Program-made: the position numbers and the translations under genes
Assembly (NCBI GenBank): GCA_964556395.1
Contig: CAZKVR010000003.1
Span: 30,715-94,714, forward strand
Length of the DNA stretch: 64,000 bases
Origin: an uncultured Methanosarcinales archaeon
Lineage (GTDB): Archaea; Nanobdellota; Nanobdellia; Woesearchaeales; WJKR01
Reading direction: 5' to 3'
Notes under the pieces: generated by a model
Seen by the model: the letters and a program-made list of their open reading frames with translations, nothing else
What the model was told of the DNA's origin: nothing
Databases searched by the model: none
Shown here: one piece after another, positions 4,440 to 63,762 of the stretch
Position numbering within the stretch: position 1 is the stretch's first letter
How the letters are laid out: each line of letters starts with the position of its first letter

Positions 4440-5454
4440 CCGTTTCCTTGTCGACCCGCTCCATGAGCTTGTCGTAGGAGGCGCGGACGTACGCCTCGGG
4501 GGTTGAGAGGAATTGCGCGCTCGGCTTGAGCCGTATGCGGTGCGCGATGACGGACTCGACCGCCTTGCCGAGGTCCTCGAACGACACTTCTTCGCGGCCG
4601 GCGAGGTAGGCGTTGGCCTGGGCGCGCTCGTACAGTCCGAGGGTTGCGCGGACGCTAGGGTGCTTCTCGAGCTTGTCGTCCTCGCGGAGCTCTCGCACGT
4701 AGCGTACGAGCGCTTCCTTGACTGGTTGCGGGACGGTGACGAGCCGGTGCCCTTTGGTGTCGACGATGCGCTCCTCGACCTGCTGGCTTTCAGGGTAGCG
4801 CATGCGGGCGATGTCGAACCGGTCGAGGAAGACGTCTGACAATGGTTCGGTGCTGTTGTCGTCAGGGTTCATCGTCCCTATGAATATGAAGTTGGCGTCG
4901 AAGTCGACGTCGTAGCTGCCGATGGTGAGCTTGCCCTCCTCGAGAACTTGGAGGAGGGCGTTCTGCAGTTTTTCAGAACAACGGTTCACCTCGTCGAAGA
5001 AGAGGATGCCATTATTGGCTTTGAAGATCTTGCCGGGCGTGAACGCCTCGAGGGATAGGGGGCCGTACTTCATCGCCTTGAGCGGGTCGATGTCGCCGAG
5101 GAGGTCCTCTGCGGTGAGGTCGGGGGATCCTTGCACCCTGATGAAGCGCTCCTCGCCTTTGACTTTTTTTGTGGGTGCTTCCTCGCCTTTCCGGGCGCGT
5201 GCGATGCAGTCCGGACAGAGCGGGTGGCCTGGCTTGCAGTGGAAGCCGCAATCCACCACTTCCATGGATGGGAGCAGTTTCGAGAGGTTCTTGACGAGCG
5301 TGGTCTTGCCGATGCCGGGCGGGCCTATGAGTATGAGGTGTCGGTCCATGAGGATGGCGCTCTTCAGCTCGTCCTTGACGTGGCCCTGTCCGATGATGTC
5401 CTGGAACTCCGCGTCGCGGAGGTTCTTCCCGAGGAGTGGCTGGTGCGGGGTCAT
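4426..5454 (-). CDS. AAA+ ATPase, MoxR / Mg-chelatase ChlI-like, with a Cys-rich insert
   Basis: Walker A GPPGIGKTT, Walker B ILFFDEVN, sensor FIFIGTMNP. Insert CGFHCKPGHPLCPDC. Overlaps the VWA gene by 14 nt (operon). TATA-like TTTTTTAAACC sits 25-36 nt upstream. Confidence 0.75.
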   Translation of the reverse strand: MTPHQPLLGKNLRDAEFQDIIGQGHVKDELKSAILMDRHLILIGPPGIGKTTLVKNLSKLLPSMEVVDCGFHCKPGHPLCPDCIARARKGEEAPTKKVKGEERFIRVQGSPDLTAEDLLGDIDPLKAMKYGPLSLEAFTPGKIFKANNGILFFDEVNRCSEKLQNALLQVLEEGKLTIGSYDVDFDANFIFIGTMNPDDNSTEPLSDVFLDRFDIARMRYPESQQVEERIVDTKGHRLVTVPQPVKEALVRYVRELREDDKLEKHPSVRATLGLYERAQANAYLAGREEVSFEDLGKAVESVIAHRIRLKPSAQFLSTPEAYVRASYDKLMERVDKETGGGR

Positions 5455-15988: not shown

Positions 15989-16145
15989 TCCGAAAAAACA
16001 CAATCTTTAAATAGAACCTGCGGACTATATATCGATTGTTGGGGTAATACAACATATAGTAAGCGAAAATATTGATATGAAATAAATTTTACAATATCTA
16101 AACGCTTATATGCCCAACACACCACAACAGACAAGGGGAGACGTG

Positions 16146-17737: not shown

Positions 17738-18094
17738 TCACCTGTTGGGATCGATGAGGAACCCTCTCTTGAGGACGTTCTGGCCGACGAGAACCTTGTA
17801 CTTCATGTGCTCACGATCGGCGAGGGTGAACTTCTCAGTCACCTCCTTGCCACGGATGCAGATGGTCGCCTCGATGACCGGCCGGAGCTTGCTGCCGTGA
17901 GCGCTCTTCACCAACCTTGATTCGACGACGGGGCCGAGCTTGAGCTGGCTCGCCAGCTTGTAATCAATGCTGCTCTTCGTAGCACCGGTATCGATGCGCG
18001 CCTTGAGCGCCTCGCTCACGCCGCCATGACGGAGCTCGACGTCCTCGACCATACCAATCAGTATCCTCTCCCTACCTTCGTCGTCCTTGATCAT
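17738..18094 (-). CDS. Retropepsin-like aspartic protease (PF05618 'putative ATP-dependent zinc protease' family), RimK-associated
   Basis: Active-site ARIDTGATKS (D-T-G-A). 118 aa. Its stop lies 1 nt before the RimK-like start. Its start overlaps the lysS stop (ATGA). Confidence 0.65.
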   Translation of the reverse strand: MIKDDEGRERILIGMVEDVELRHGGVSEALKARIDTGATKSSIDYKLASQLKLGPVVESRLVKSAHGSKLRPVIEATICIRGKEVTEKFTLADREHMKYKVLVGQNVLKRGFLIDPNR

Positions 18095-19584
18095 AATCCC
18101 TCATCCTTCTGCGGCCTCATGGTCGGGAACAATATCACATCACGGATGGAGTCGTTCCCGGTGAATAACATGACGAAACGGTCGATACCCAACCCGACGC
18201 CGCTCGTCGGCGGCATACCATGCTCCAGGGACGCGAGGAAATCCTCATCCATAGGATGGGCCTCCTCGTCGCCGCCGCGTCCGCGCTCGGCCTGCTCTTC
18301 CAGCAGCCTTCGCTGCACGACGGGGTCATTGAGCTCAGAATAGGCGTTGCCCATCTCCCAACCGTTGATGTAGACCTCGAACTGCTCGACATAGCGATCA
18401 TCACCATCTCGCCGGGCTTTGGCGAGCGGGGTGTTCTCGACAGGGTAGTCCCTGACGAACGTTGGTTGTATGAGCTTGTCCTCGCACTTCCCCTCAAAGA
18501 TAGCGACGACGAGCATGCCCCAGCTGCTGGCGTCGTACTCGATACCTTCCTTGTCGCAGTAGTCGAGGAGGTCTTCCCGCGACATGCTGTCGATGTCGAG
18601 GCCAGTGTGCTCGTTGACAACCGCGGCGACCGTCATCCGCCTCCAAGGGGGTTTGAGATCTATCTCCTTGCCGTCGAACGTAATCTTCGTCGTGCCGAGG
18701 ACGTCCTGGGCGGCCTTGCTCACCGCATCCTCCACGAGGCGCATGCCATCGTTGTAGTCACCGTAGGCCTGATACCATTCCACTTGGGTGAACTCAGGGT
18801 TGTGGGTGCGGTCGATGCCTTCGTTGCGGAAATCCTTGACGAACTCGTAGACGCGCTCGAAGCCACCCACCAAGAGCCGTTTGAGGTAGAGCTCGTTGCT
18901 GATCCGGAGGTAGAGCCTCATGTCGAGGGCGTTGTGATGGGTGACGAACGGCCGGGCGTTGGCGCCGCCGTACACGGGCTGGAGGGTCGGCGTCTCGACC
19001 TCGAGGAAGCCGTTGCCGTCCAGCGTCTGTCGGATGCTCTTGATGATCTTCGAACGCTTGATGAACGTCTCACGCACCTCGGGATTCATGATGAGGTCGA
19101 GGTATCGCTGGCGGTAGCGGAGCTCGGTGTCCTGGAGGCCGTGGTACTTCTCAGGGAGGGGCCGGAGGGACTTGGCGAGGAGCTCGAGGCTCTTGGCGCG
19201 GACGGTGACCTCGCCTGTCTTGGTGGCGAATACCGTGCCGTCGGCACCGATGATGTCGCCGATGTCGAGCTTCTTGAAACGCTTGTACTGCTCGTCTCCG
19301 AGCTCGTCCTTGCGGACGTAGAGCTGGATCCTTCCGGTGGCGTCCTGGATGGTGCAGAATGAGGCCTTGCCCATCACGCGCAACGCCATGATGCGGCCGG
19401 CCACGACGACTTCCTGCTCGGTCGTCGCTTCAGGCTCGAGGCCCTTATGGGCTTCCTGGACCTGGGCGGCGTCGTGGGTCTTGCCGTACCGGTATGGGTA
19501 CGGGTTGACACCATTTTCGAGGAGCGCCTCGCGCTTCCTCATACGTTCCTGTACGAGCCGGTGCTCGTTCTGTTCCTCCACCAT
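18091..19584 (-). CDS. lysS: Lysyl-tRNA synthetase, class II
   Basis: N-terminal OB anticodon-binding domain. Class II motifs FRNEG, GLGIDR. 497 aa. Confidence 0.95.
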   Translation of the reverse strand: MVEEQNEHRLVQERMRKREALLENGVNPYPYRYGKTHDAAQVQEAHKGLEPEATTEQEVVVAGRIMALRVMGKASFCTIQDATGRIQLYVRKDELGDEQYKRFKKLDIGDIIGADGTVFATKTGEVTVRAKSLELLAKSLRPLPEKYHGLQDTELRYRQRYLDLIMNPEVRETFIKRSKIIKSIRQTLDGNGFLEVETPTLQPVYGGANARPFVTHHNALDMRLYLRISNELYLKRLLVGGFERVYEFVKDFRNEGIDRTHNPEFTQVEWYQAYGDYNDGMRLVEDAVSKAAQDVLGTTKITFDGKEIDLKPPWRRMTVAAVVNEHTGLDIDSMSREDLLDYCDKEGIEYDASSWGMLVVAIFEGKCEDKLIQPTFVRDYPVENTPLAKARRDGDDRYVEQFEVYINGWEMGNAYSELNDPVVQRRLLEEQAERGRGGDEEAHPMDEDFLASLEHGMPPTSGVGLGIDRFVMLFTGNDSIRDVILFPTMRPQKDEGL

Positions 19585-21233: not shown

Positions 21234-23327
<2,094 letters not shown>

Positions 23328-30037: not shown

Positions 30038-30270
30038 ACGGTTGGAGTGATGAGGATATTTTAAAAGCTTCCGGTGCTCGGCTGGCGTGTAGAAAAAACC
30101 AAGCGAACAACGAGGATAACTCTTGCGTCCGGTAAGAACAAGTCTGATTTATAAAAAAGCACTTCTTGCAAGAGCCATTCAGGCGCCGCGACCACTACAA
30201 GAGCAAGATAGTCTGCAAATCCATACTTGAGGAAACTTATTTAAACCGCGGTCCGTCTACAAAGAACAAC

Positions 30271-32814
30271 ATGGTCATGCCTGACAAGGAGGTCAAGCGC
30301 TGGTTCAAGGCCGAGGCGAGCAAGGACCCCGACAAGTACTACGCGACCGAGGTGTTGCGTGCCGAGGGTTTCAAACGGAGCCAGTGCGCCGAGTGCGGCA
30401 CCTATTATTGGAGCACTGACGAGGGCCGCACGACGTGCGACGACCCGGCCTGCTCTGGCGGCTTCCGCTTCTTCGAGGACAACCCTGCCAAGGAGCCGAT
30501 GGACTACGTCCGGACGTGGAAGGCTTTCAAGAATCTCATGGAGGGTCGCGGCTACACTGCTATCGAGCGCTACCCGGTCATCGCGCGGTGGCGGGCCGAC
30601 ACGGAGTTCGTCCAGGCGAGCATCTACGACTTCCAACCCTACGTCGTGACGGGCGAGGTGGACCCGCCGGCCAACCCGCTGGTCGTGCCGCAGTTCTCAT
30701 TACGTTTCAATGATGTGGACAACGTCGGCGTGACGATGAGCCACATGACCGGGTTCGTCATGATAGGCCAGCACGCGTTCATGCCCAAGGATGAGTGGGA
30801 TCAGGACAAGGTGTTCAGGGACATCTACGCCTGGCTCCGTGAAGGCCTCGGGCTCCCTAAGGATGAGATCACGTTCCACGAGGACTCGTGGGCGGGCGGC
30901 GGCAACTTCGGGCCTTGTATGGAGTTCTTCAGCCGTGGCTGCGAGCTGGGCAACCAGGTGTACATGCTGTACGAGCAGACCGCGGACGGCCATAAGGAGT
31001 TGCCGCTGAAGGTGCTCGACATGGGGATGGGCCATGAGCGCGTCGCCTGGTTCACCCAGGGGAAAGGCACGATCTACGACGCGGCGTTCCCGACGGTGAT
31101 GGAGAAGCTGCGTTCACGGACGGATGTGGCGTACGACGAGGAGCTCGTGAGGAAGTACCTGCCTTACGCGTCCTACCTCAACGCCGACGAGACGGACGAC
31201 GTCGAGGCCGAGTGGCAGCGCGTCGCGGACGCGGTGGGGAGGAGCGTCGATGACGTTAAGGCGTTCGTCAAGCCGCTCGCCGCGTTGTACAGCGTGGCCG
31301 AGCACGCCCGGTCGTTGCTCGTGGCGTTGAGCGACGGCGGCCTGCCGAGCAACGTCGGCGGCGGCTACAACCTCAGGGTCATCCTGCGACGCGCGTTGCG
31401 GTTCCTCGACGAGTATGGCTGGGACGTGAAGCTGTACGAGGTGTGCGAGTGGCACGCCGACTACCTCAAGGGATTGTTCCCGGAGCTGTCTGAGAACCTC
31501 GACGAGGTGAAGGAGATACTCGCGTACGAGGAGCGGCGCTACGAGGAGTCGAAGGAGCGCAATGCCAAGCTCGTCAAGCGATTGGTGGAGAAGGGCGAGG
31601 ATTTCTCGACTGGGAAGCTCATCGAATTGTACGACAGCAAGGGTGTCGCGCCCGAAGAGGTCGCCAAGGCTGCGGCCGAGGCGGGCCAGGAGGTCGAGGT
31701 GCCTGAGAACTTCTACGCGTTGGTGGCTGAGAAGCACGCGGATGAGGGAGCGGGCGCGACGAGAACCGGCAAGGAGGAGTCCTTGCCGTTGGACGAGTTG
31801 CCGCCGACCGACGCGTTGTACTTCGACCATTATGATTACGTGGATTTCACAGGACGTGTCATCAGGATCATCGACAACAACGTGGTGTTGGACCGTACGG
31901 CGTTCTACCCCACGAGCGGCGGGCAGGTCCATGACAAGGGCACGCTGGGAGGTGTCGAGGTCGTCGAGGTGTTCTCGCAGGCCACGCCGGAAGGCAAGGT
32001 TATAGTCCATGTATTGGCTGATGAGCCCGGCTTCAAGGAAGGCGACAAGGTGGAAGGGAGGATAGACCTGGAGCGGCGCGCGCAACTGGCGCAACACCAC
32101 ACGGCGACGCACATCCTCACGGGTTCCGCCCGGCGGGTGTTGGGGGATCACGTGTGGCAGGCTGGCGCGGCCAAGACTCCTGAGAAGAGCCGGTTGGACA
32201 TCACGCATTATGAGCAGCTCTCGGACGAAGAGTTGGAGAGTATTGAACGGTTGGCCAACGAGGTCGTGGACGAGAACCGTCCGGTGTACAAGTCTTTCAT
32301 GGCGCGCGACCTGGCGGAGGCGGAGTATGGCTTCAGGCTCTACCAGGGCGGCGCGGTGCCTGGCAAGAGGTTGCGTATCGTCAACATCGAGGGTTTCGAC
32401 GTCGAGGCTTGCGGTGGCACCCACCTGGACGTGACGGGTGACGTCGGGCACGTCAAGATCCTCAAGACGAGCAAGATCCAGGACGGTGTCGTCAGGCTCG
32501 AGTTCGTCGCAGGGGCTGCGGCCGAGGCGGCGCTCGCGCATGAGCGGCAGTTGTTGGAAGAGTCTTTGGCGGTCGTGGGCGGTGTTGAGAGGCAGTTGCC
32601 GGCTAGGGCTGAGGAGTTGTTCCGGCTGTGGAAGAAGGCTAAGAAGGGCAAGCTGGACGAGTTCGGATTATCGGCGACTGAGGAGACGGACGGCGACCCG
32701 TTGGTGGAAGCTTCGAAGGTGTTGAAGACCCAGCCCGAGCACGTGCCGAAGACGCTGAAGCGGTTCTCGCAGGACATCGAGAAGCGGTTGTCGAAGAAGA
32801 ATTCTGAAAAATAA
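30271..32814 (+). CDS. alaS: Alanyl-tRNA synthetase (archaeal type)
   Basis: Start trimmed to MVMPDKEV, in frame with track ORF 30166. N-terminal CAECG..C zinc element like archaeal AlaRS. Editing-domain HxxxH motif HHTATHIL and CGGTH. TATA CTTATTTAAACC at 30234-30243. Confidence 0.9.
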   Translation: MVMPDKEVKRWFKAEASKDPDKYYATEVLRAEGFKRSQCAECGTYYWSTDEGRTTCDDPACSGGFRFFEDNPAKEPMDYVRTWKAFKNLMEGRGYTAIERYPVIARWRADTEFVQASIYDFQPYVVTGEVDPPANPLVVPQFSLRFNDVDNVGVTMSHMTGFVMIGQHAFMPKDEWDQDKVFRDIYAWLREGLGLPKDEITFHEDSWAGGGNFGPCMEFFSRGCELGNQVYMLYEQTADGHKELPLKVLDMGMGHERVAWFTQGKGTIYDAAFPTVMEKLRSRTDVAYDEELVRKYLPYASYLNADETDDVEAEWQRVADAVGRSVDDVKAFVKPLAALYSVAEHARSLLVALSDGGLPSNVGGGYNLRVILRRALRFLDEYGWDVKLYEVCEWHADYLKGLFPELSENLDEVKEILAYEERRYEESKERNAKLVKRLVEKGEDFSTGKLIELYDSKGVAPEEVAKAAAEAGQEVEVPENFYALVAEKHADEGAGATRTGKEESLPLDELPPTDALYFDHYDYVDFTGRVIRIIDNNVVLDRTAFYPTSGGQVHDKGTLGGVEVVEVFSQATPEGKVIVHVLADEPGFKEGDKVEGRIDLERRAQLAQHHTATHILTGSARRVLGDHVWQAGAAKTPEKSRLDITHYEQLSDEELESIERLANEVVDENRPVYKSFMARDLAEAEYGFRLYQGGAVPGKRLRIVNIEGFDVEACGGTHLDVTGDVGHVKILKTSKIQDGVVRLEFVAGAAAEAALAHERQLLEESLAVVGGVERQLPARAEELFRLWKKAKKGKLDEFGLSATEETDGDPLVEASKVLKTQPEHVPKTLKRFSQDIEKRLSKKNSEK

Positions 32815-48500: not shown

Positions 48501-49854
48501 AGACCTTGAATCTCAAGTCACCTTCCTTGCCATAGGTTTCCCCCTCCTGATTAGGATCGGGAAAGGGGTTGCACGTACCAGTCATACGAGCGGAGACGAG
48601 GGTCTGGCTACTGCCTGCGGGATCAAGGGATAGCGGCACGAAGAAGCGTTTCGACGTTTGCTCGAGGAACCCCTTGTTGGCTCTCTGAGGCTCAGGATCG
48701 ACTGCAGTCCAGAGGTCGGCGGGCCCTGTGCGTCGTTCCACAACCTTGACGTCGAGGTCTCGGTGCGTGGCGGTCTGTCCTGAGAGGTCTTGAAGTGTCA
48801 ATGGTATGGTGAACGTGCCTAGTTCGGACGGCGTCGCTTCGACGGATACGGTGCACGTCCACTCGTCATCGGAATCATCCTTCTGGGTGCAGCTACCTTC
48901 CACTTCCTCTCCGCCGAGGCTCTGCGCGTCTGCGGTCATCTTGAGTGTCGGGCTCGTGCTTTCCGTGACGTTGACCTCGATGGTAGCGGTGTCGCCCATG
49001 GCGACGACCGGGTGTTCAGACTCTTCTGAAGGCTGTGGCGCGTCACTCGTGACCACTGGGTCGCCTGAGAATTCCGGCTCCCGGGCGTCGCACACCACTT
49101 CCGACTCCGTGATGCCTGTCAGCGGGTTGCCGGCGTCGTCCTGGCTCGGTCTCGAACCGGTGTAAGTGGTGAGGGTTAGCGACACCTTGCGGCCATCCTG
49201 GCATGACGCGGTCGAGACCCCGTGGCACGTGGTGTCTTCGCAGGTGGAGACGAGCGACCGCGTCCCGTCAAGGGCGAAGGCTATCCGTAGCCGGTGGAAG
49301 GTGGCTTTCGGGTCTTCCATCTTTATCGTGACAGGGGTGTAGCCGCTCTGGGCGTAGCACGTCCCTTCGTGGCACGTGTCGGTTCCGAGGAAGGTTACTT
49401 CCGGTCGGGTGTCGTCGATGGTGAAGGCGAATGTTTGCGTGTGCGTCTCGCTGTGGTCGCCGAAGAGATGGGCGGTGATGTTAATGGAAGGGTTTTCTTT
49501 GCTTGGTTGTATGACGAGGCCTGTGAGGGGGCATGAGAGGTTGTGGCCGTCGTAGAGGCAGTCTCGTTTTTTTATGGTGGCAGTGGTTTCTCCTCGTGGG
49601 TTGAGCTGTTCGTGGTCTATCGTGAGTGATTCGACCTCGCTCGCGTCCGATAGCTTGACGAACAGCGTGACGGGGGTGGGGTGTCGTGGGTTGATGGTGT
49701 CCACGTCGTGGCCGTTCCATCGTAGGGCTGCCTCTTCGAGAGCCGTGGCGGCTGTGAGCGCTGGGAGCGAGAGGGCTAGGAACAGTAGGAGTAGGGTCTT
49801 CTTGGTTGCCGCTCTCAAAAAACACGCCACCTCTTCTCGATGATGAGGAGGCAC
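45565..49854 (-). CDS. Giant secreted surface protein (1429 aa) with signal peptide and central coiled-coil/low-GC segment
   Basis: Signal peptide TLLLLFLALSLPALTAATA. Cys-containing modules. Lys/Glu-rich coiled-coil stretch (about aa 880-1150). Confidence 0.55.
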   Translation of the reverse strand: MPPHHREEVACFLRAATKKTLLLLFLALSLPALTAATALEEAALRWNGHDVDTINPRHPTPVTLFVKLSDASEVESLTIDHEQLNPRGETTATIKKRDCLYDGHNLSCPLTGLVIQPSKENPSINITAHLFGDHSETHTQTFAFTIDDTRPEVTFLGTDTCHEGTCYAQSGYTPVTIKMEDPKATFHRLRIAFALDGTRSLVSTCEDTTCHGVSTASCQDGRKVSLTLTTYTGSRPSQDDAGNPLTGITESEVVCDAREPEFSGDPVVTSDAPQPSEESEHPVVAMGDTATIEVNVTESTSPTLKMTADAQSLGGEEVEGSCTQKDDSDDEWTCTVSVEATPSELGTFTIPLTLQDLSGQTATHRDLDVKVVERRTGPADLWTAVDPEPQRANKGFLEQTSKRFFVPLSLDPAGSSQTLVSARMTGTCNPFPDPNQEGETYGKEGDLRFKVSSVTSGTVLLRGVLNTGSHYAERNHLRYNCSLNLQTLKGDYLSTTEEETFTMSFELDESDTMGAKIRDEVLYEMNSTVKSLSWVQTARQTLAGLNLVCAAAPAIKGAGGGLNGAAAGSEGTFISNLLQSIGINLQKVSESGAFKSVNKACKITTCDMSWTGDVLGFDMGEDLGKFGDVAKDVGVDPNRAWDPYSGFAASAMTACVPAMVYHVERYASVDCNYITCLSRDVRNGRATIDMCQQQRGYESCLFMTGGWLSALPVSFIKDYTSTLLEAASNPVALFGGSAIIAFCEIGAGSDYTLPKKICSAAVGLKGFYNGVQELSRLHDQLRKLSNSGQLGQEVCGPVRESVDRESGYWDYSVQDEGFEPLYRTFDSHGDVITDTERINNCKDCTHCNPFTGCSFKEGNVETKIMFSPDGDSSVIYDGSGNFMGTRDDYSTILRESRTELLSSADDWSNLKEDLEDTPYDEDVRQSYDRVMEDSLFTDDFIQGYQRYANNFQNLDEPWANDNPLEGSWDTNDHLRPYGPLKGELEQGLNQLDQAMDKTQEEINHYETMIDLQTPPDPENPEDEVSTANYESQIDSLKSLKKELDKSKDEMSSHLKNLDNFKEKSQDLNEINSEFKHKETVGNILYTSEETTKKYAEGLSDMLEEQGYDIDSGFVEDYVTDLAEYENEIASLKPEADRLERLHEQAEEYKDLKAKDELTDQEQKRLDDIEEKFKDEDFEPDDSEDIGNKLEKVEEDLKEAKKGRRKIKGSLKAEMFVDKNIRGLSRIGTYFSTLNMVNSFSNTFMGDDGWIDNPWSNEKLEDAKDEVESWLTGENICKEKLGGAEGVKANIEEQSGETSTAAFAAGLIKEEGLRDGTEQYSYTLNALVSNSHDNDKNLTFSLRLSSTEGRGSVDVPLEVDEEGRSLTRIDVPPGDSWERILGSMIDYPSSGEATSDRYDQVCLHFHVGDIKDFFDITTSSKKFCRRLEVG

Positions 49855-57672: not shown

Positions 57673-58473
57673 TCACACCTCGTCGTCGAACATTCGTTTG
57701 AGTTCGAAGCACACCGCTTGTTGGTTCACCCTGATGTCGCGTGGGCAGAGGGTGTGCTCCAGACGTGGTTCGAGTGCCTCGGCGTCGTTTATTAAGTTTT
57801 CCTTCTCCTGTTCAGTCGCGTATCGTGCGATGACGTTGTAGCCAGCCTTATCGGGGTGGATGAGGTCGTATCGTCGTAGGTGTTGTTTGAGCTTGTTCGC
57901 GCGGTGCTTCATCGCAGTCGTCCTTCTTTTTATGGTTTCGAGCAGTCTGGTGAGCCGTTCCCAGTCGAGGCTTGGCTCGTCCTCGTCCAGGGGGTGGTCG
58001 GTGGCGATGAAGCCTCCTTGTCTGAGAGGTATGGGTTTCCATTTTCCGAAGCTGCCGATGATGATGTCGCCTTCCTTGGCGGCTGGCGTGCCGATGCTGG
58101 CTGCGGTGTCGTTGATGAGGAGGATGCCTTGTTCCTTGCACTTCTCCGCGATGGCTTTAGCAGGGATGGTGAAGGCGTAGGCTGGGAGGGTGTTGATGAG
58201 GAGGACTGTCTTGTCGTCGCCTGTTGTCATGTCCGGCGTGATGAGGCCTGCGTCGGTCTTCAACGTCCTTATAGTGTAGCTGGCCTTCTCGCCGAGGGGC
58301 TTGTAGGTGAGCCAGCCCGCCTGGTCAGGGATGAGGAGCTCTTCCCTCTTTTTCCTTGCGAGGGATAGCGCTTTCTTGATGGCGTGGTTTCCTTTGGCAG
58401 TGAAGGCTATGTGGGGCTTGCCGGTGAGCTTTCTTAAATGAGCCCGTGCGGCTTCACGTTGTCGTCCGTCCAT
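57673..58473 (-). CDS. Short DegT/DnrJ/EryC1-like PLP-dependent aminotransferase-fold protein
   Basis: GSFGKWKPIPLRQGGFIAT resembles SFHxxK..GEGG with the PLP lysine. N-terminal A..G.HAI..AL. Only 266 aa. Confidence 0.35.
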   Translation of the reverse strand: MDGRQREAARAHLRKLTGKPHIAFTAKGNHAIKKALSLARKKREELLIPDQAGWLTYKPLGEKASYTIRTLKTDAGLITPDMTTGDDKTVLLINTLPAYAFTIPAKAIAEKCKEQGILLINDTAASIGTPAAKEGDIIIGSFGKWKPIPLRQGGFIATDHPLDEDEPSLDWERLTRLLETIKRRTTAMKHRANKLKQHLRRYDLIHPDKAGYNVIARYATEQEKENLINDAEALEPRLEHTLCPRDIRVNQQAVCFELKRMFDDEV

Positions 58474-58667
58474 GGTGACGATTATGGAAGAAAGGTCTTT
58501 TTATAAGCGTTGGGTTGTGATTGTTTCAGGAACATTTTGTCATGGTGCAGACGCCTCGCCGAGCCAGGGAAACCCTTCCATAGTTGAAAATAATTATAGG
58601 ATATATGCGTTGAAAAACGCCACATCAAACACATGATTTTTTCAAGATATAGACCATCACACACAAA

Positions 58668-58680
58668 CATATTTAAACAA
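58668..58680 (+). promoter_or_regulatory. TATA box (CATATTTAAACAAG) for nrdR, about 105-nt leader containing repeats
   Basis: Position relative to ATG 58786. Confidence 0.4.
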
Positions 58681-58713
58681 GCAAGGAGAGCAACGAACAC
58701 TAGATATAGGGTT

Positions 58714-58770
58714 CCGGAACAAGCCGGAACACTACCAATAGTATCACCGGATGACGACAACACATCCGGA
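58714..58770 (+). promoter_or_regulatory. Candidate operator: direct repeat CCGGAACA-AG-CCGGAACA followed by inverted repeat CCGGATG-N9-CATCCGG
   Basis: Seen directly. Located between the TATA box and the nrdR start codon. Confidence 0.35.
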
Positions 58771-58785
58771 CGTGAGGTCTGAAAG

Positions 58786-59259
58786 ATGCGCTGCCCGTAC
58801 TGCAACCACCCGGAAACAAAGGTGCTCGAGACGCGAGAAGCGGAGAGCAACACCCGCAGGCGCAGGGAGTGCCAGAAGTGCAGCAAACGCTTCACCACGT
58901 ACGAAGAGATAGAGCTCACGAACATCTACGTGCTGAAGAAGAACGGGAGCAAACAGGAATTCAACCGGCAGAAACTGCTCCACGGCATGCTACGGGCGTG
59001 CGAGAAGAGACCCATCACAGTCGAAGAACTGGAGACGGTCGCGGACGAGATCGAGACCAAGCTGCGCAACCACAAGAAGAACGAAGTGCGCAGCACACAC
59101 ATCGGAGAGATGATCATGAGACGGCTGAGGAAGCTCGACCACATAGCATACCTCAGGTTCGCCTCGGTCTACCGAGACTTCGAAGACATCGACACGTTCC
59201 ACGACGAGCTCCAGCAACTCCTCGAGAAGGACAAGGCGAAGAAAGCAGTATCAAGATGA
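58786..59259 (+). CDS. nrdR: Transcriptional repressor NrdR (zinc ribbon + ATP-cone)
   Basis: MRCPYCNHPETKVLETR....CQKCSKRFTTYE, then ATP-cone. 157 aa. Confidence 0.9.
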   Translation: MRCPYCNHPETKVLETREAESNTRRRRECQKCSKRFTTYEEIELTNIYVLKKNGSKQEFNRQKLLHGMLRACEKRPITVEELETVADEIETKLRNHKKNEVRSTHIGEMIMRRLRKLDHIAYLRFASVYRDFEDIDTFHDELQQLLEKDKAKKAVSR

Positions 59260-61298
59260 AAGGTGACAACATGAGCGAGGTACGAGACCAGAAAACCATG
59301 ATCGACTACGGCGTGCAAGGACAAGACCTGCACGCGGAAGAAGCGCCCAGCAGCGTGTTCTTCACACTCGACGACGACTTCGTAAGCCAGTACAAAGGCA
59401 AGCAGCCGGAATGGGGCCCGATAGGGTACGTCACGTACAAGCGCACCTACGCCCGGCCACTGCCGGAAGGAGGCACGGAGGAGTTCTGGCAGACCGTCAA
59501 GCGCGTCGTCGAAGGAGTCTTCACCATCCAGAAGAACCACTGCAGGGTCAACCAACTACCATGGATAGAAGAGAAAGCGCAGAAATCCGCCCAGCGCATG
59601 TTCGAGCTCATGTGGCAGTTCAAGTTCACACCACCCGGCAGGGGGTTGTGGATGATGGGCACCGACTACATGTACAAGCGCGGAGGAGCCGCGCTGAACA
59701 ACTGCGCGTTCTGCAGCACCGAGCACATCGACATCAGCTTCGCAGAACCGTTCTGCTTCCTCATGGACATGAGCATGCTCGGCGTCGGCGTCGGCGGCGA
59801 CACCAAAGGGGCAGGGAAGCTCACCATCAAGCAGCCCGAGATCGAAGACCGCGTCTACGTGGTGGACGACTCGCGGGAAGGATGGGGCGAGATCCTCAGG
59901 ACAGTCCTGAAAGCATACTCCGGAGAGGGCAAGATGCCAGCCAAGATCAGCTACGACCAGGTCCGACCGGCAGGAGCCCCCATCAAGACGTTCGGCGGCA
60001 CCGCGTCAGGCCCGGGACCGCTCATCGAGATGGTCGAGAGCATCAAGAAACTCCTCGACCAGCGCGTCGGACAGACCATCACGAGCGGCGACATCGTCGA
60101 CATCTTCAACCTCGTCGGACGATGCGTCGTCTCCGGCGGCGTGAGGCGCACCGCGGAGATCATGTTCGGAGAGCACGACGACACCGGTTTCATGCAGCTC
60201 AAGGACCCGGACAAGCACCGGGAAGAGCTCATGCACCACCGGTGGGCGAGCAACAACAGCATCTTCGCAAAGGTCGGGATGGACTACACCGACGTGGCGG
60301 AGCGGACGGCGAAGAACGGCGAGCCAGGCTACATGTGGCTGGAGAACGCGCAGAAATACTCCCGGATGGGCCGCAAGCCCGACTTCAAGGACATCCGGGC
60401 GATGGGCGGCAACCCTTGCCTGGAACAGACGCTCGAACCCTATGAATTGTGCTGCCTGGTCGAGACCTACCCGTCGAAGCACGAGACCCTCGAGGAGTGG
60501 CAGGAGACGCTCAAGTACGCCTACCTCTACGCCAAGAGCGTGACGCTCGTGCCGACGCACAACAAGCTGACCAACGCCGTCATGCTCAGGAACCGCCGTA
60601 TAGGATGCAGCATGAGCGGCATCACCCAGGCGTTCACCAAGTTCGGACGCCGCCAGATGCTCAACGCGTCGGACAAGGGGTACGACGTGATACAGCACTA
60701 CGACGAGGTCTACTCGGAATGGCTGTGCGTCCCGCGGTCGGTGAAGACGACGAGCGTCAAGCCGTCAGGGACCGTGTCGTTGTTGGCGGGCGTGACGCCG
60801 GGCATCCACTACCCTACGGCACAGTATTATATCAGGAACATCCGGTTCCAGGAAGGCAGCAAGCTCTTGGACGAGCTGCGGGCGGCCGGCTACAAGGTGG
60901 AGAAGGACAAGTACTCGCTCAACACCTACGTCGTCTCGTTCCCGGTCAAGGAGGAGTACTTCGACCGGAGCGTCGAGGACGTGAGCATGTGGGAGCAGCT
61001 CGAAAACGCCGCCCAGATCCAATCGCATTGGGCTGACAACCAGGTCTCGGTGACCATCACGTTCTCGGAAGACGAGGCGAAGGACATCAAGAACGCCCTG
61101 GAACTCTACGAGAGTCGCTTGAAAGGCGTGTCGTTCCTGCCGAAGATGGACCACGGCTACGAGCAGGCGCCGTACATCCCTATCAGCAAGGAGGTCTACG
61201 AGGAGATGAAAGCCAAGGTGCGTCCGCTCCAGTCGCTCTCGGAAGCGGAGCATGAGGTCACCGACAAGTTCTGCACGACCGACAAATGTACGCTCTGA
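59256..61298 (+). CDS. nrdJ: Ribonucleotide reductase, class II (adenosylcobalamin-dependent), NrdJ-like
   Basis: PGRGLWMMG, NNCAF and C-terminal redox Cys pair CTTDKC. ATG overlaps the nrdR stop (ATGA). Confidence 0.8.
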   Translation: MKGDNMSEVRDQKTMIDYGVQGQDLHAEEAPSSVFFTLDDDFVSQYKGKQPEWGPIGYVTYKRTYARPLPEGGTEEFWQTVKRVVEGVFTIQKNHCRVNQLPWIEEKAQKSAQRMFELMWQFKFTPPGRGLWMMGTDYMYKRGGAALNNCAFCSTEHIDISFAEPFCFLMDMSMLGVGVGGDTKGAGKLTIKQPEIEDRVYVVDDSREGWGEILRTVLKAYSGEGKMPAKISYDQVRPAGAPIKTFGGTASGPGPLIEMVESIKKLLDQRVGQTITSGDIVDIFNLVGRCVVSGGVRRTAEIMFGEHDDTGFMQLKDPDKHREELMHHRWASNNSIFAKVGMDYTDVAERTAKNGEPGYMWLENAQKYSRMGRKPDFKDIRAMGGNPCLEQTLEPYELCCLVETYPSKHETLEEWQETLKYAYLYAKSVTLVPTHNKLTNAVMLRNRRIGCSMSGITQAFTKFGRRQMLNASDKGYDVIQHYDEVYSEWLCVPRSVKTTSVKPSGTVSLLAGVTPGIHYPTAQYYIRNIRFQEGSKLLDELRAAGYKVEKDKYSLNTYVVSFPVKEEYFDRSVEDVSMWEQLENAAQIQSHWADNQVSVTITFSEDEAKDIKNALELYESRLKGVSFLPKMDHGYEQAPYIPISKEVYEEMKAKVRPLQSLSEAEHEVTDKFCTTDKCTL

Positions 61299-61300
61299 AC

Positions 61301-61867
61301 ATGGCAACGGAAAGTCCTGACGAGTTGCGCGAGAAGCTCGGCCTGGTGCACGTGTACACGGGCAACGGGAAGGGCAAGACCACGGCAGCCCTCGGGCTGG
61401 CGATGCGGGCGTTGGAGCACGGGCTCAACGTCTCCATGGTCCAGTTCCTCAAAGGAGGGTTGTACGTCGGGGAATTGTTGGCGCCCGCCCGTTTTTCAGG
61501 GCAGTTCTCCATAGACCAGTTCGGGAAAGGGTCTGAGGACGAGCCGCACTACGATGACTTCGAGCCTGACGAGGCTGACCGGGAGCGGGCGTTGCGCGGG
61601 CTGGAGCGGGCGCGGGAGCTGATGCGGCAAGGGCAAGCCGATGTCTTGATACTGGACGAGGTGCACGTGGCGTTGCAGTTGGGACACCTGGATGTGTCCG
61701 AAGTGCTCGACGTGATGAGGGAGAAGCCCGAACGGATGGAGCTGGTGTTGACGGGGAGGCACGCGCCGAAAGAACTGGTCGAGGCTGCTGATTACGTGAC
61801 CGAGATGCGGGCGCACAGGCACCCCTACAACAAGGGGATCCTCGGCCGGAAGGGCGTGGATTACTAG
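61301..61867 (+). CDS. cobO: Cob(I)alamin adenosyltransferase (CobA/CobO/BtuR family)
   Basis: HVYTGNGKGKTTAALGLAMRA P-loop signature. Starts 3 nt after the nrdJ stop. Confidence 0.85.
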   Translation: MATESPDELREKLGLVHVYTGNGKGKTTAALGLAMRALEHGLNVSMVQFLKGGLYVGELLAPARFSGQFSIDQFGKGSEDEPHYDDFEPDEADRERALRGLERARELMRQGQADVLILDEVHVALQLGHLDVSEVLDVMREKPERMELVLTGRHAPKELVEAADYVTEMRAHRHPYNKGILGRKGVDY

Positions 61868-63094: not shown

Positions 63095-63127
63095 AGGTTG
63101 TGGCTTAAATGTTTTTCCCCAACAATG

Positions 63128-63137
63128 CTTTTATAGG
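63128..63137 (+). promoter_or_regulatory. TATA box (GCTTTTATAGGG) for leaderless tdk
   Basis: 23-32 nt upstream of ATG 63160. Confidence 0.45.
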
Positions 63138-63159
63138 GTTTGCGTGTTCTCTCTCCCTG

Positions 63160-63762
63160 ATGAGCGAGCATCAATCCCTGCCATTCTTTCCGGAACAGTA
63201 CATCCCTGGCTGGCTGGAGGTGTACGCGGGTCCGATGAGGTCTGGCAAGAGTTCCGAGATCAGGAACCGGTTCTCGAAGCTGGAGCCTGCAGGGTTAGGT
63301 TATAAGCGTTTCCAGCCGTCGTTGAACGAGCGCGACTCAGGGAATGGGATTACTACTCGGAACGGCGACACGTTCGAGGCCATCAAGATCGTCCAGCCGT
63401 ACGAGGTGTTCGACTACCTCAAGGAGGGTATTCCTCAGGATGGCGTCCATGTCGTCGGGTTCGACGAGGCCCAGTTCTTCCCGGATTCGATAGAACAGGT
63501 GGTGGAGGGGTTGTTGTTGCAGGACCGCAACGTCGTCGTGGCTGGTTTGGACCTTGATTCTGAGAAGGAGACGTTCGGCAGCATGGGACGCCTCATGGAG
63601 CTGGCTGATTACGTGAAGAAATTGCATGCCGTGTGCGAGGGTTGCGGCGACCGGCCTGCGAGGTACACGTACTTCAAGGGCGGGAAGAAGGATCAGGTCT
63701 TGGTCGGGGATGAGGTGTACGACGTGCTGTGCCGCGGGTGCTACGACTCCCGTTCTGGTTGA
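63160..63762 (+). CDS. tdk: Thymidine kinase
   Basis: Start trimmed to MSEHQS. P-loop GPMRSGKSSEI. VVGFDEAQFF. C-terminal zinc Cys pairs CEGCG...CRGC. Confidence 0.85.
   Translation: MSEHQSLPFFPEQYIPGWLEVYAGPMRSGKSSEIRNRFSKLEPAGLGYKRFQPSLNERDSGNGITTRNGDTFEAIKIVQPYEVFDYLKEGIPQDGVHVVGFDEAQFFPDSIEQVVEGLLLQDRNVVVAGLDLDSEKETFGSMGRLMELADYVKKLHAVCEGCGDRPARYTYFKGGKKDQVLVGDEVYDVLCRGCYDSRSG

Follow-up and report, generated by a model that had tools for sequence, protein, structure and literature searches.

A canonical NrdR operator probably controls an nrdR–class II ribonucleotide reductase–cobO operon in Woesearchaeota

The closest known counterpart of the locus described here is the nrdRJ operon of Streptomyces coelicolor, in which nrdR comes first and is directly followed by the gene of an adenosylcobalamin-dependent ribonucleotide reductase (RNR), and which is autoregulated through two 16-bp NrdR boxes that are palindromic in part, separated by a linker of 15–16 bp and overlapping the start region (PMC9110341, PMC13584703). 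Here, we analysed a stretch of 64,000 nucleotides from an uncultured archaeon of the Woesearchaeales lineage (contig CAZKVR010000003.1, positions 30,715 to 94,714; hereafter the window, which also sets the coordinates used below) that carries nrdR, a class II RNR gene of the RTPR type and the corrinoid adenosyltransferase gene cobO in a row. These genes very probably form an autoregulated operon of Woesearchaeota that is controlled by a canonical NrdR operator.

The bacterial mechanism is well characterized. NrdR loaded with dATP and ATP forms a tetramer whose two Zn-ribbon pairs bind boxes three helical turns apart, and each box is kinked by ~90 degrees; NrdR oligomers formed with ATP only cannot bind DNA (PMC9110341). 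Experiments with the S. coelicolor and Escherichia coli proteins identified C4, A6, T11 and G13 of each box, a linker of 15–16 bp and an A+T content of at least 63% between C4 and G13 as critical, and the sequence of the linker as irrelevant for binding (PMC13584703). Published surveys of NrdR boxes covered bacterial genomes. For archaea the literature is inconsistent: NrdR is called ‘absent’ in the passage of a preprint that cites a 2005 survey (bioRxiv 10.1101/2025.03.28.645925), ‘rare in archaea’ in two papers (PMC9110341, PMC12176259) and, in the most recent figure, present in ‘22% of archaeal genomes’ (PMC13584703). A preliminary description of the window, which had called NrdR uncommon in archaea, agrees with the second of these statements and is overstated in view of the third. 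Mention of NrdR together with DPANN was not found in the literature searched. Bacterial-type regulators as such are the norm in archaea. The system itself is known, and what therefore appears undescribed is the placement of its operator relative to an archaeal TATA box.

Compared with S. coelicolor nrdRJ, the window locus has the same gene order, the same paired 16-bp boxes, here overlapping a start region that is predicted, and a repressor with a Zn-ribbon, an ATP-cone, R17 and the RRRR motif. It differs in its archaeal host and TATA-type promoter, in place of −35/−10 elements, in an RNR of the RTPR family (TIGR02505) instead of NrdJ_Z, in cobO as a third gene and in E15/T16 where S. coelicolor NrdR has D15/S16; moreover, the archaeal system is predicted from sequence. 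The bacterial operators of E. coli nrdAB, nrdHIEF and nrdDG, and the logo derived from 935 sites, share with it the box sequence, the four critical positions and the three-turn spacing. Their boxes usually overlap the −35/−10 elements, whereas those of the window lie entirely downstream of the TATA box, from about the predicted +1, and the woesearchaeal clade uses the CTA/TAG form strictly. Two bacterial nrdR–nrdJ–(x)–cobA clusters (L062 and L073) likewise combine repressor, B12-dependent RNR and corrinoid adenosyltransferase in this order, with an NrdR box pair upstream in L073; unlike the window locus, they have bacterial hosts and an NrdJ_Z-type RNR of ~860 aa, and L073 carries an extra open reading frame (ORF) between RNR and cobA. 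Among archaeal repressors, MDR1, Phr, LrpA and NrpR bind downstream of the TFB-recognition element (BRE) and TATA box and block recruitment of RNA polymerase. The likeness to these is one of working principle only, with an operator just downstream of TATA, over the predicted start, that leaves the TBP/TFB sites free; NrdR belongs to an unrelated protein family, senses dATP/ATP through its ATP-cone and binds two sites as a tetramer with sharp kinks.

The predicted promoter, operator and operon comprise the following elements:

58670–58677, plus strand: archaeal TATA box TATTTAAA, putative promoter of the nrdR operon; octamer kept in 14/14 loci
58697–58712: NrdR box 1, ACACTAGATATAGGGT; consensus match and top matrix score in the window
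58713–58728: linker between the boxes, 16 bp; length exact in 14/14 loci
58729–58744: NrdR box 2, ACACTACCAATAGTAT; second-best matrix score in the window
58786–59259, plus strand: nrdR, repressor of 157 aa with Zn-ribbon and ATP-cone; TIGR00244, 194.3 bits (cutoff 124.65), covering 1–147/147
59271–61298, plus strand: RTPR-type class II adenosylcobalamin RNR; TIGR02505, 386.4 bits (cutoff 340.05); alternative start at 59256
61301–61867, plus strand: cobO/cobA, ATP:corrinoid adenosyltransferase; TIGR00708, 186 bits (cutoff 167.75), and PF02572, 196.9 bits

Box conservation was assessed in 14 loci, namely the window and 13 distinct woesearchaeal nrdR loci whose NrdR proteins are 62–89% identical. 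The close woesearchaeal loci were obtained through exact-protein look-ups; a scan of genome contigs with the NrdR protein returned mostly bacteria, with no close woesearchaeal relatives among the matches listed. Box 1 is the sole match in the 64 kb to the published consensus ACACWATATATWGTGT at three mismatches or fewer (2 mismatches; 0.13 expected), and box 2 has 4 mismatches. C4, A6, T11 and G13 are present in both window boxes and invariant in all 14 loci, as is the distance of 32 bp from the start of box 1 to the start of box 2, and T5 and A12 are invariant in the woesearchaeal boxes, which gives the strict CTA/TAG form. Box 1 has an A+T content of 88% over positions 5–12, and box 2 one of 75%. 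Scored with a position weight matrix (PWM) trained on the 13 other loci, with the window left out, the two highest-scoring 16-mers in the window were box 1 with 23.7 bits and box 2 with 20.7 bits, and the third-ranked 16-mer reached 13.0; as a tandem the pair scored 44.4, and no unrelated pair in the window exceeded 0.3. Mean column identity was 0.90 and 0.88 for the two boxes and 0.55 for the linker. The site thus has the composition of an NrdR operator, two partially palindromic 16-bp boxes around a 16-bp linker, and with the canonical pair kept in 14/14 loci the autoregulation that had been suggested for the leader is very probable.

A degenerate box-pair pattern searched across metagenomes recovered 46 loci, the great majority of them bacterial-looking and one woesearchaeal. 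Several of the 46 have a bacterial-like nrdR beside the boxes, and the genome sample likewise contained bacterial nrdR genes immediately preceded by box pairs. Since the same pattern retrieves bacterial NrdR operators, the woesearchaeal sites represent the canonical operator and not a look-alike. In a search that covered the 64 kb and flanks of roughly 10 kb, no other tandem box site was detected by PWM in the window, and none was found in the ten loci that were scanned whole (L081–L090). Isolated weak box-like 16-mers do occur, ATACAACATATAGTAA at 16047–16062 (11.6 bits, just after tRNA-Arg) and ACAGTAGGAGTAGGGT at 49782–49797 (13.0 bits, inside a coding ORF); without a partner box at a permitted spacing, these are probably chance matches.

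The two canonical boxes, the predicted operator, had been missed in the preliminary description, which sought the operator of NrdR or another regulator in two repeats of the leader, the direct repeat CCGGAACA (58714–58721 and 58724–58731, with AG between the copies) and the inverted repeat CCGGATG-N9-CATCCGG. Both repeats exist, and their place in the leader, 3′ of the TATA box and 5′ of the start codon, would suit an operator, yet this assignment is almost certainly mistaken, as neither resembles an NrdR box and the conservation of the region is explained by the canonical boxes. The linker holds the whole first copy of CCGGAACA and five bases of the second, which enters box 2 by 3 nt, so that the repeat falls largely in the drifting segment between the boxes, where sequence is dispensable for specific binding (PMC13584703). 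The motif is confined to the window and, in part, L083; it is absent from 12/13 other loci, and the closest relative, L089, has TCCAAACACCGAAGGA in its place. The arms of the inverted repeat, for their part, differ in every lineage. An exact 8-mer direct repeat within 60 nt is expected ~0.3 times in this 317-nt region and a 7-nt inverted repeat ~1.2 times (estimates), and a repeat search that reported both of them also listed several unrelated repeats of equal quality from this intergenic region; judged on the window alone, neither repeat stands clearly above what chance would give.

The CCGGAACA repeat arises because the linker contains a TCCGG...CCGGA inverted repeat that extends the dyad of the palindromic boxes, forming an 11-nt inverted repeat (58707–58717 / 58724–58734) with its core in the linker. 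Self-complementarity of the linker is enriched in the woesearchaeal set (p~3e-4, box-flanking bases fixed), and 33 linkers from bacterial NrdR operators show the same degree of enrichment per sequence (p=0.003). Because the bacterial linkers are equally enriched, the symmetry is best described as a generic extended dyad of NrdR operators. The linker was also considered as a hairpin specific to archaea and discarded as such; when the register is held constant, good conservation is limited to the two T/A pairs that flank the boxes.

All three gene assignments exceed their profile cutoffs, and the unit is archaeal, as had been proposed: a metagenome-assembled genome of Candidatus Woesearchaeota encodes a protein with 100% identity to the window NrdR, and the alanyl-tRNA synthetase (AlaRS) encoded in the window matches the archaeal equivalog TIGR03683 (849 bits vs a cutoff of 745). 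NrdR matches the Pfam families Zn_ribbon_NrdR (PF22811, 61 bits) and ATP-cone (PF03477, 80 bits), and its residues 1–148 align to E. coli NrdR (9fzf, E=3e-39). The RNR contains RNR_Alpha (PF17975), RNR-II_ins_dom (PF21995) and barrel (PF02867) domains and belongs to the RTPR-type class II enzymes by profile, with a predicted use of adenosylcobalamin and triphosphates; an ATP-cone was not found in it by profile searches. The order nrdR–RTPR is kept in the 13 further woesearchaeal loci. In the 8 of them with contigs reaching far enough, the gene after the RNR is cobO. Neither a second RNR nor another deoxynucleoside triphosphate (dNTP) gene was found within the 64-kb window.

The elements from which the preliminary description had started, the TATA box, the nrdR ATG at 58786, both repeats, the ATGA, the cobO start and a tdk ORF from 63109, are all present in the sequence. 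The ATGA at 59256–59259 does span the nrdR stop, as reported, although it is unlikely to be the real RNR start: ATG 59271 is preceded by a Shine–Dalgarno sequence (GGTGA, 59262–59266), is homologous to the RNR starts of L089, L090, L083 and L081 (MS.VRDQ.TMIDYG) and agrees with the 675-aa NCBI product P0121, and is probably the start used. With ATG 59271 as start, nrdR and the RNR gene do not overlap and are separated by 11 nt; in either case they are tightly linked. The RNR stop (TGA, 61296–61298) lies 2 nt before the cobO ATG at 61301.

The protein determinants of repression are retained except at positions 15 and 16. C3, C6, C29 and C32, R17 and R24–R27 (RRRR) are kept without exception in the NrdRs aligned, which comprise 10 woesearchaeal proteins, 8 from other archaea and 72 from bacteria; the cysteines bind Zn, R17 confers specificity and RRRR contacts the DNA backbone (PMC9110341). 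In the alignment to E. coli NrdR, K52, E59, F60 and K64 coincide with the nucleotide-binding residues of the ATP-cone, which in S. coelicolor are K50, E56, F58 and K62 (PMC9110341), and nucleotide binding by the window NrdR is predicted on this basis. The woesearchaeal proteins have Glu15-Thr16 in 10/10 cases, as opposed to Asp15 in 70/72 bacterial proteins, mostly followed by Ser16; E15/T16 together with the strict CTA/TAG boxes may represent a co-varying change of specificity.

The promoter geometry is conserved as well. The operator lies directly upstream of nrdR–RTPR, and a TATA-like element, CATATTTAAACAA at 58668–58680, stands 5′ of it. An octamer of the form T(A/T)T(A/T)TAAA is found upstream in 14/14 loci. 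In 13/14 a gap of 16–20 nt separates its end from box 1, and in the window this gap is 19 nt. The centre of an archaeal TATA box lies about 26–27 nt upstream of the start site. With the TATA-to-box 1 distance fixed, we infer a transcription start inside box 1, at positions 3–7 across the loci and at position ~4 in the window. A scan for sigma-70 promoters and intrinsic terminators gave no more matches than chance.

By analogy with the bacterial mechanism (PMC9110341), a rise of dATP relative to ATP would lead NrdR, loaded with dATP and ATP, to form a tetramer. Its two Zn-ribbon pairs would attach to the two boxes, which are spaced by three helical turns, and kink them; the bound tetramer would cover roughly −4 to +44. 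TBP and TFB could still bind, and recruitment of RNA polymerase or opening of the promoter would be blocked. Blocking the polymerase while the TBP/TFB sites stay free is the usual mode of archaeal repressors that act downstream of TATA. Repression would lower the repressor, the one RNR found here and the enzyme supplying that RNR with its adenosylcobalamin cofactor, and co-expression of cobO would couple adenosylcobalamin synthesis to RNR expression. Because the RTPR lacks an ATP-cone of its own, NrdR would supply the dATP/ATP feedback at the level of transcription. Such dATP-dependent repression by occlusion of the start site is suggested jointly by the bacterial mechanism, the retained NrdR residues and the promoter geometry.

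Several observations weigh against an operator acting in this way. The transcription start is predicted from the position of the TATA box, and the action of NrdR in archaea is read from sequence; in L088 the TATA box lies only 9 nt from box 1, not ~19 nt. An invariant AT-rich block, GAAAATAATT (58586–58595), ~75 nt upstream of the nrdR TATA box, could be another promoter, in which case the boxes would serve as a roadblock and not act on initiation. The central A8/T9 is found in box 1 only, box 2 having CA, although a missing central AT is tolerated in bacteria (PMC13584703). Residue 15 is Glu and not the Asp that contributes to specificity in S. coelicolor; this does not exclude membership of the NrdR family, since Glu is a conservative replacement and is shared by two bacterial sequences, one of them from the Clostridia locus L032. 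Finally, boxes upstream of nrdR were not found in seven Micrarchaeota loci (L006, L008, L016, L017, L024, L036 and L067), none of which has an RTPR-type RNR adjacent to nrdR. Autoregulation is therefore not universal in archaea, and the targets of the Micrarchaeota NrdRs must lie elsewhere in their genomes.

The upstream block, in the form GAAAAT(A/T)ATT at 58586–58595, is followed ~45 nt later by a CATATG-like motif, and this arrangement is kept in 8/8 aligned woesearchaeal intergenic regions. The conserved stretch 58586–58660 could be a second promoter or the site of another regulator; RNAalifold predicts no pairs in it, so it is not a structured RNA.

Ancestry of the locus bears on a further reading, in which the boxes have no function and are left over from a bacterial promoter that arrived with a transferred nrdR–RNR–cobO cassette, now expressed constitutively from the TATA box. 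In a neighbour-joining tree, which lacks support values, the woesearchaeal NrdRs form a single clade that nests within bacterial sequences, with Clostridia and Patescibacteria as neighbours, and other DPANN NrdRs fall elsewhere; it is compatible with acquisition from bacteria, as a weak hint, without proving a bacterial origin. The RTPR has relatives labelled bacterial at 60–72% identity, and the order nrdR–nrdJ–cobA is found in bacteria too. A relic is nevertheless very improbable. Across repressors as divergent as those of the 14 loci, the critical positions of the boxes never vary and their starts are exactly 32 bp apart, while the linker and leader diverge freely, which argues for purifying selection on the operator; the fixed TATA-to-box distance argues for adaptation to the archaeal promoter; and an intact repressor with all its DNA- and nucleotide-binding residues is encoded in the same operon.

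The selected, canonical operator that we favour has a variant counterpart in another archaeal lineage. In L031, a Nanoarchaeota archaeon carrying Dph2, nrdR–RTPR occurs without cobO and with Dph2 downstream. Variant boxes ATACAACTTGTTGAGT and GTACAAGATGTTGTAT (TACAA-N4-TTG) at 4949–4996 start 32 bp apart with a 16-bp linker, and on manual reading they too have C4, A6, T11 and G13. Across the linker runs a 9-bp inverted repeat without mismatches, TTGAGTATT/AATACTCAA, and 4 nt separate the end of box 2 from the nrdR ATG.

One component of the window operon is left unexplained by NrdR, the stem-loop that follows the operator and corresponds to the inverted repeat mentioned above. The leader features concerned are:

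58747–58769, plus strand: leader stem-loop CCGGATG-ACGACAACA-CATCCGG, arms 58747–58753 / 58763–58769, loop with conserved GAC(G/A)A
58774–58778, plus strand: Shine–Dalgarno-like GAGGT, 7 nt 5′ of the nrdR ATG, read from the sequence

On manual reading, GGAG/GGTG-type motifs occupy similar leader positions in most of the 14 loci. The stem starts 0–4 nt past box 2 in 12/14 loci; in L085 it starts 12 nt past box 2, and L126 has no stem of at least 3 bp. Its sequence varies, from CCGGGCG/CGCCCGG (L089) and CACTG/CGGTG (L081) to CACTT/AAGTG, CACTCT/AGAGTG and CTCGTTG/CGACGAG. Because the arms change sequence between orthologues while pairing is kept, the element fits a nucleic-acid structure and not a sequence-specific operator. 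It is present in the minimum free energy and centroid folds of the predicted leader, and the summed best stem is 71, vs 58.3±3.3 in shuffles (p~0.001). At +12 past box 2, an (A/C)GAC(G/A)A(A/C)AA motif was read manually from the aligned leaders in 12/14 loci; elsewhere in the window, GACGA-type loop motifs match coding sequences only, which is uninformative. At the gathering threshold, Rfam recognized a single tRNA in the window and no family at the stem-loop, and a permissive search (E<=10) of 58600–58850 gave three meaningless hits.

Candidate explanations for the stem-loop are an RNA element of the 5′ untranslated region (UTR), a constraint at the DNA level and a degenerate third half-box. 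That the stem, with its fixed GAC(G/A)A(A/C)AA, is a functional cis-regulatory 5′ UTR RNA acting in addition to NrdR, on stability, translation or the binding of a protein or ligand, is a tentative proposal about which we are more doubtful than confident. Compensatory differences between the 12 loci with a properly placed stem speak for it, as do the excess over shuffles and the leaders of 7/12 loci, which are more stable than dinucleotide shuffles (z<=-2.1), but the palindromic boxes themselves contribute part of that z-score. The recurrence of GAC at +12 past box 2 is open to both interpretations, since so strict a distance to box 2 fits a constraint on DNA equally well. Stems in the AT-richer loci are weak (−0.4 to −2.4 kcal/mol), and L086 and L126 have none; the Shine–Dalgarno sequence is sequestered in only some loci, no Rfam family matches, and L031 has no such element. 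The broader proposition that the stem-loop is an undescribed cis-regulatory element, whether a 5′ UTR RNA or an extra protein-binding site, we regard as unlikely.

A DNA-level explanation would take CAC(T) right after box 2 and AGAC nine bases later as a degenerate third NrdR box that abuts box 2 and extends the repressor complex. When the last base of box 2 is counted as 1, position 4 is a C and position 13 a G, so that the two have the 9-bp C/G spacing that is critical in NrdR boxes, and on manual reading of 58745–58765 and the equivalent positions in L081–L090 and L137–L139 the left half-site CACT is matched in 10/14 loci and CAC(T/C) in 12/14. Bacterial three-box operators do exist, in Thermotoga maritima nrdJ and as box 0 of E. 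coli nrdAB (PMC13584703). However, most loci lack A6 and T11, 58744–58759 does not rank among the top 25 PWM scores in the window, and the 15-bp offset would place the third box on the opposite face of the DNA, unlike the known spacings of 31–32 or 42–43 bp; a third box is accordingly quite improbable.

The thymidine kinase gene had been drawn into the same regulon and does not belong to the unit:

63109–63762: tdk, thymidine kinase domain; Pfam TK, 115 bits

Three minus-strand ORFs lie between tdk and cobO, and there is no box upstream of tdk, where the best 16-mer near 63109 scores 7.1 bits and is inside another gene. When ten woesearchaeal loci (L081–L090) were compared with the window Tdk protein, tdk was absent from them. 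The preliminary description is thus partly supported: the observation on the genes was right, the operator was assigned to the wrong sequences and the link to tdk has no support.

Other features of the window touch the operon and its host more loosely. The archaeal-type AlaRS (30166–32814) occurs beside a bacterial-type class II lysyl-tRNA synthetase (TIGR00499) and DNA gyrase B (18091–19584 and 21411–23327); such mixtures of bacterial-type and archaeal-type genes are typical of DPANN genomes. Close RTPR homologues from metagenomes showed 64–70% identity where BLASTP gave a value, and NCBI names their family ‘fused protease/ribonucleoside-triphosphate reductase’. Two of them (P0132 and P0144) have an N-terminal ATP-cone and five (P0146, P0149, P0166, P0180 and P0181) carry intein/LAGLIDADG insertions; the window RTPR has neither. 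Upstream of the operon, a divergent gene (57673–58473) weakly matches a pyridoxal phosphate-dependent enzyme, and its counterparts in related loci have MJ1341_C and DegT-type Pfam matches. The motifs TTTTTATAAG, TTGGGTTGTG and GGAACATTTTG, within 58498–58539, are kept in 6/8 aligned loci and resemble, on the minus strand, the TATA box and upstream elements of this divergent gene.

The window operon belongs to a known regulatory system, of which it is a well-conserved and largely ordinary example; its host is unusual, and the post-operator stem-loop is the one unexplained extra. Nothing established is overturned, given that NrdR in archaea and autoregulated nrdR–nrdJ operons were already known. 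What the locus adds is a bacterial nucleotide-sensing repressor that appears to act on an archaeal TATA promoter, through an operator that begins at the predicted +1 and keeps a fixed distance to the TATA box; this placement makes the action of NrdR on the archaeal transcription machinery directly testable in vitro. The stem-loop, if it proves to be a regulatory element, would add a second layer of control over RNR expression in DPANN archaea, beyond NrdR. For these reduced genomes, the arrangement would place both the supply of dNTPs and the activation of a salvaged B12 cofactor under a single dATP/ATP sensor.

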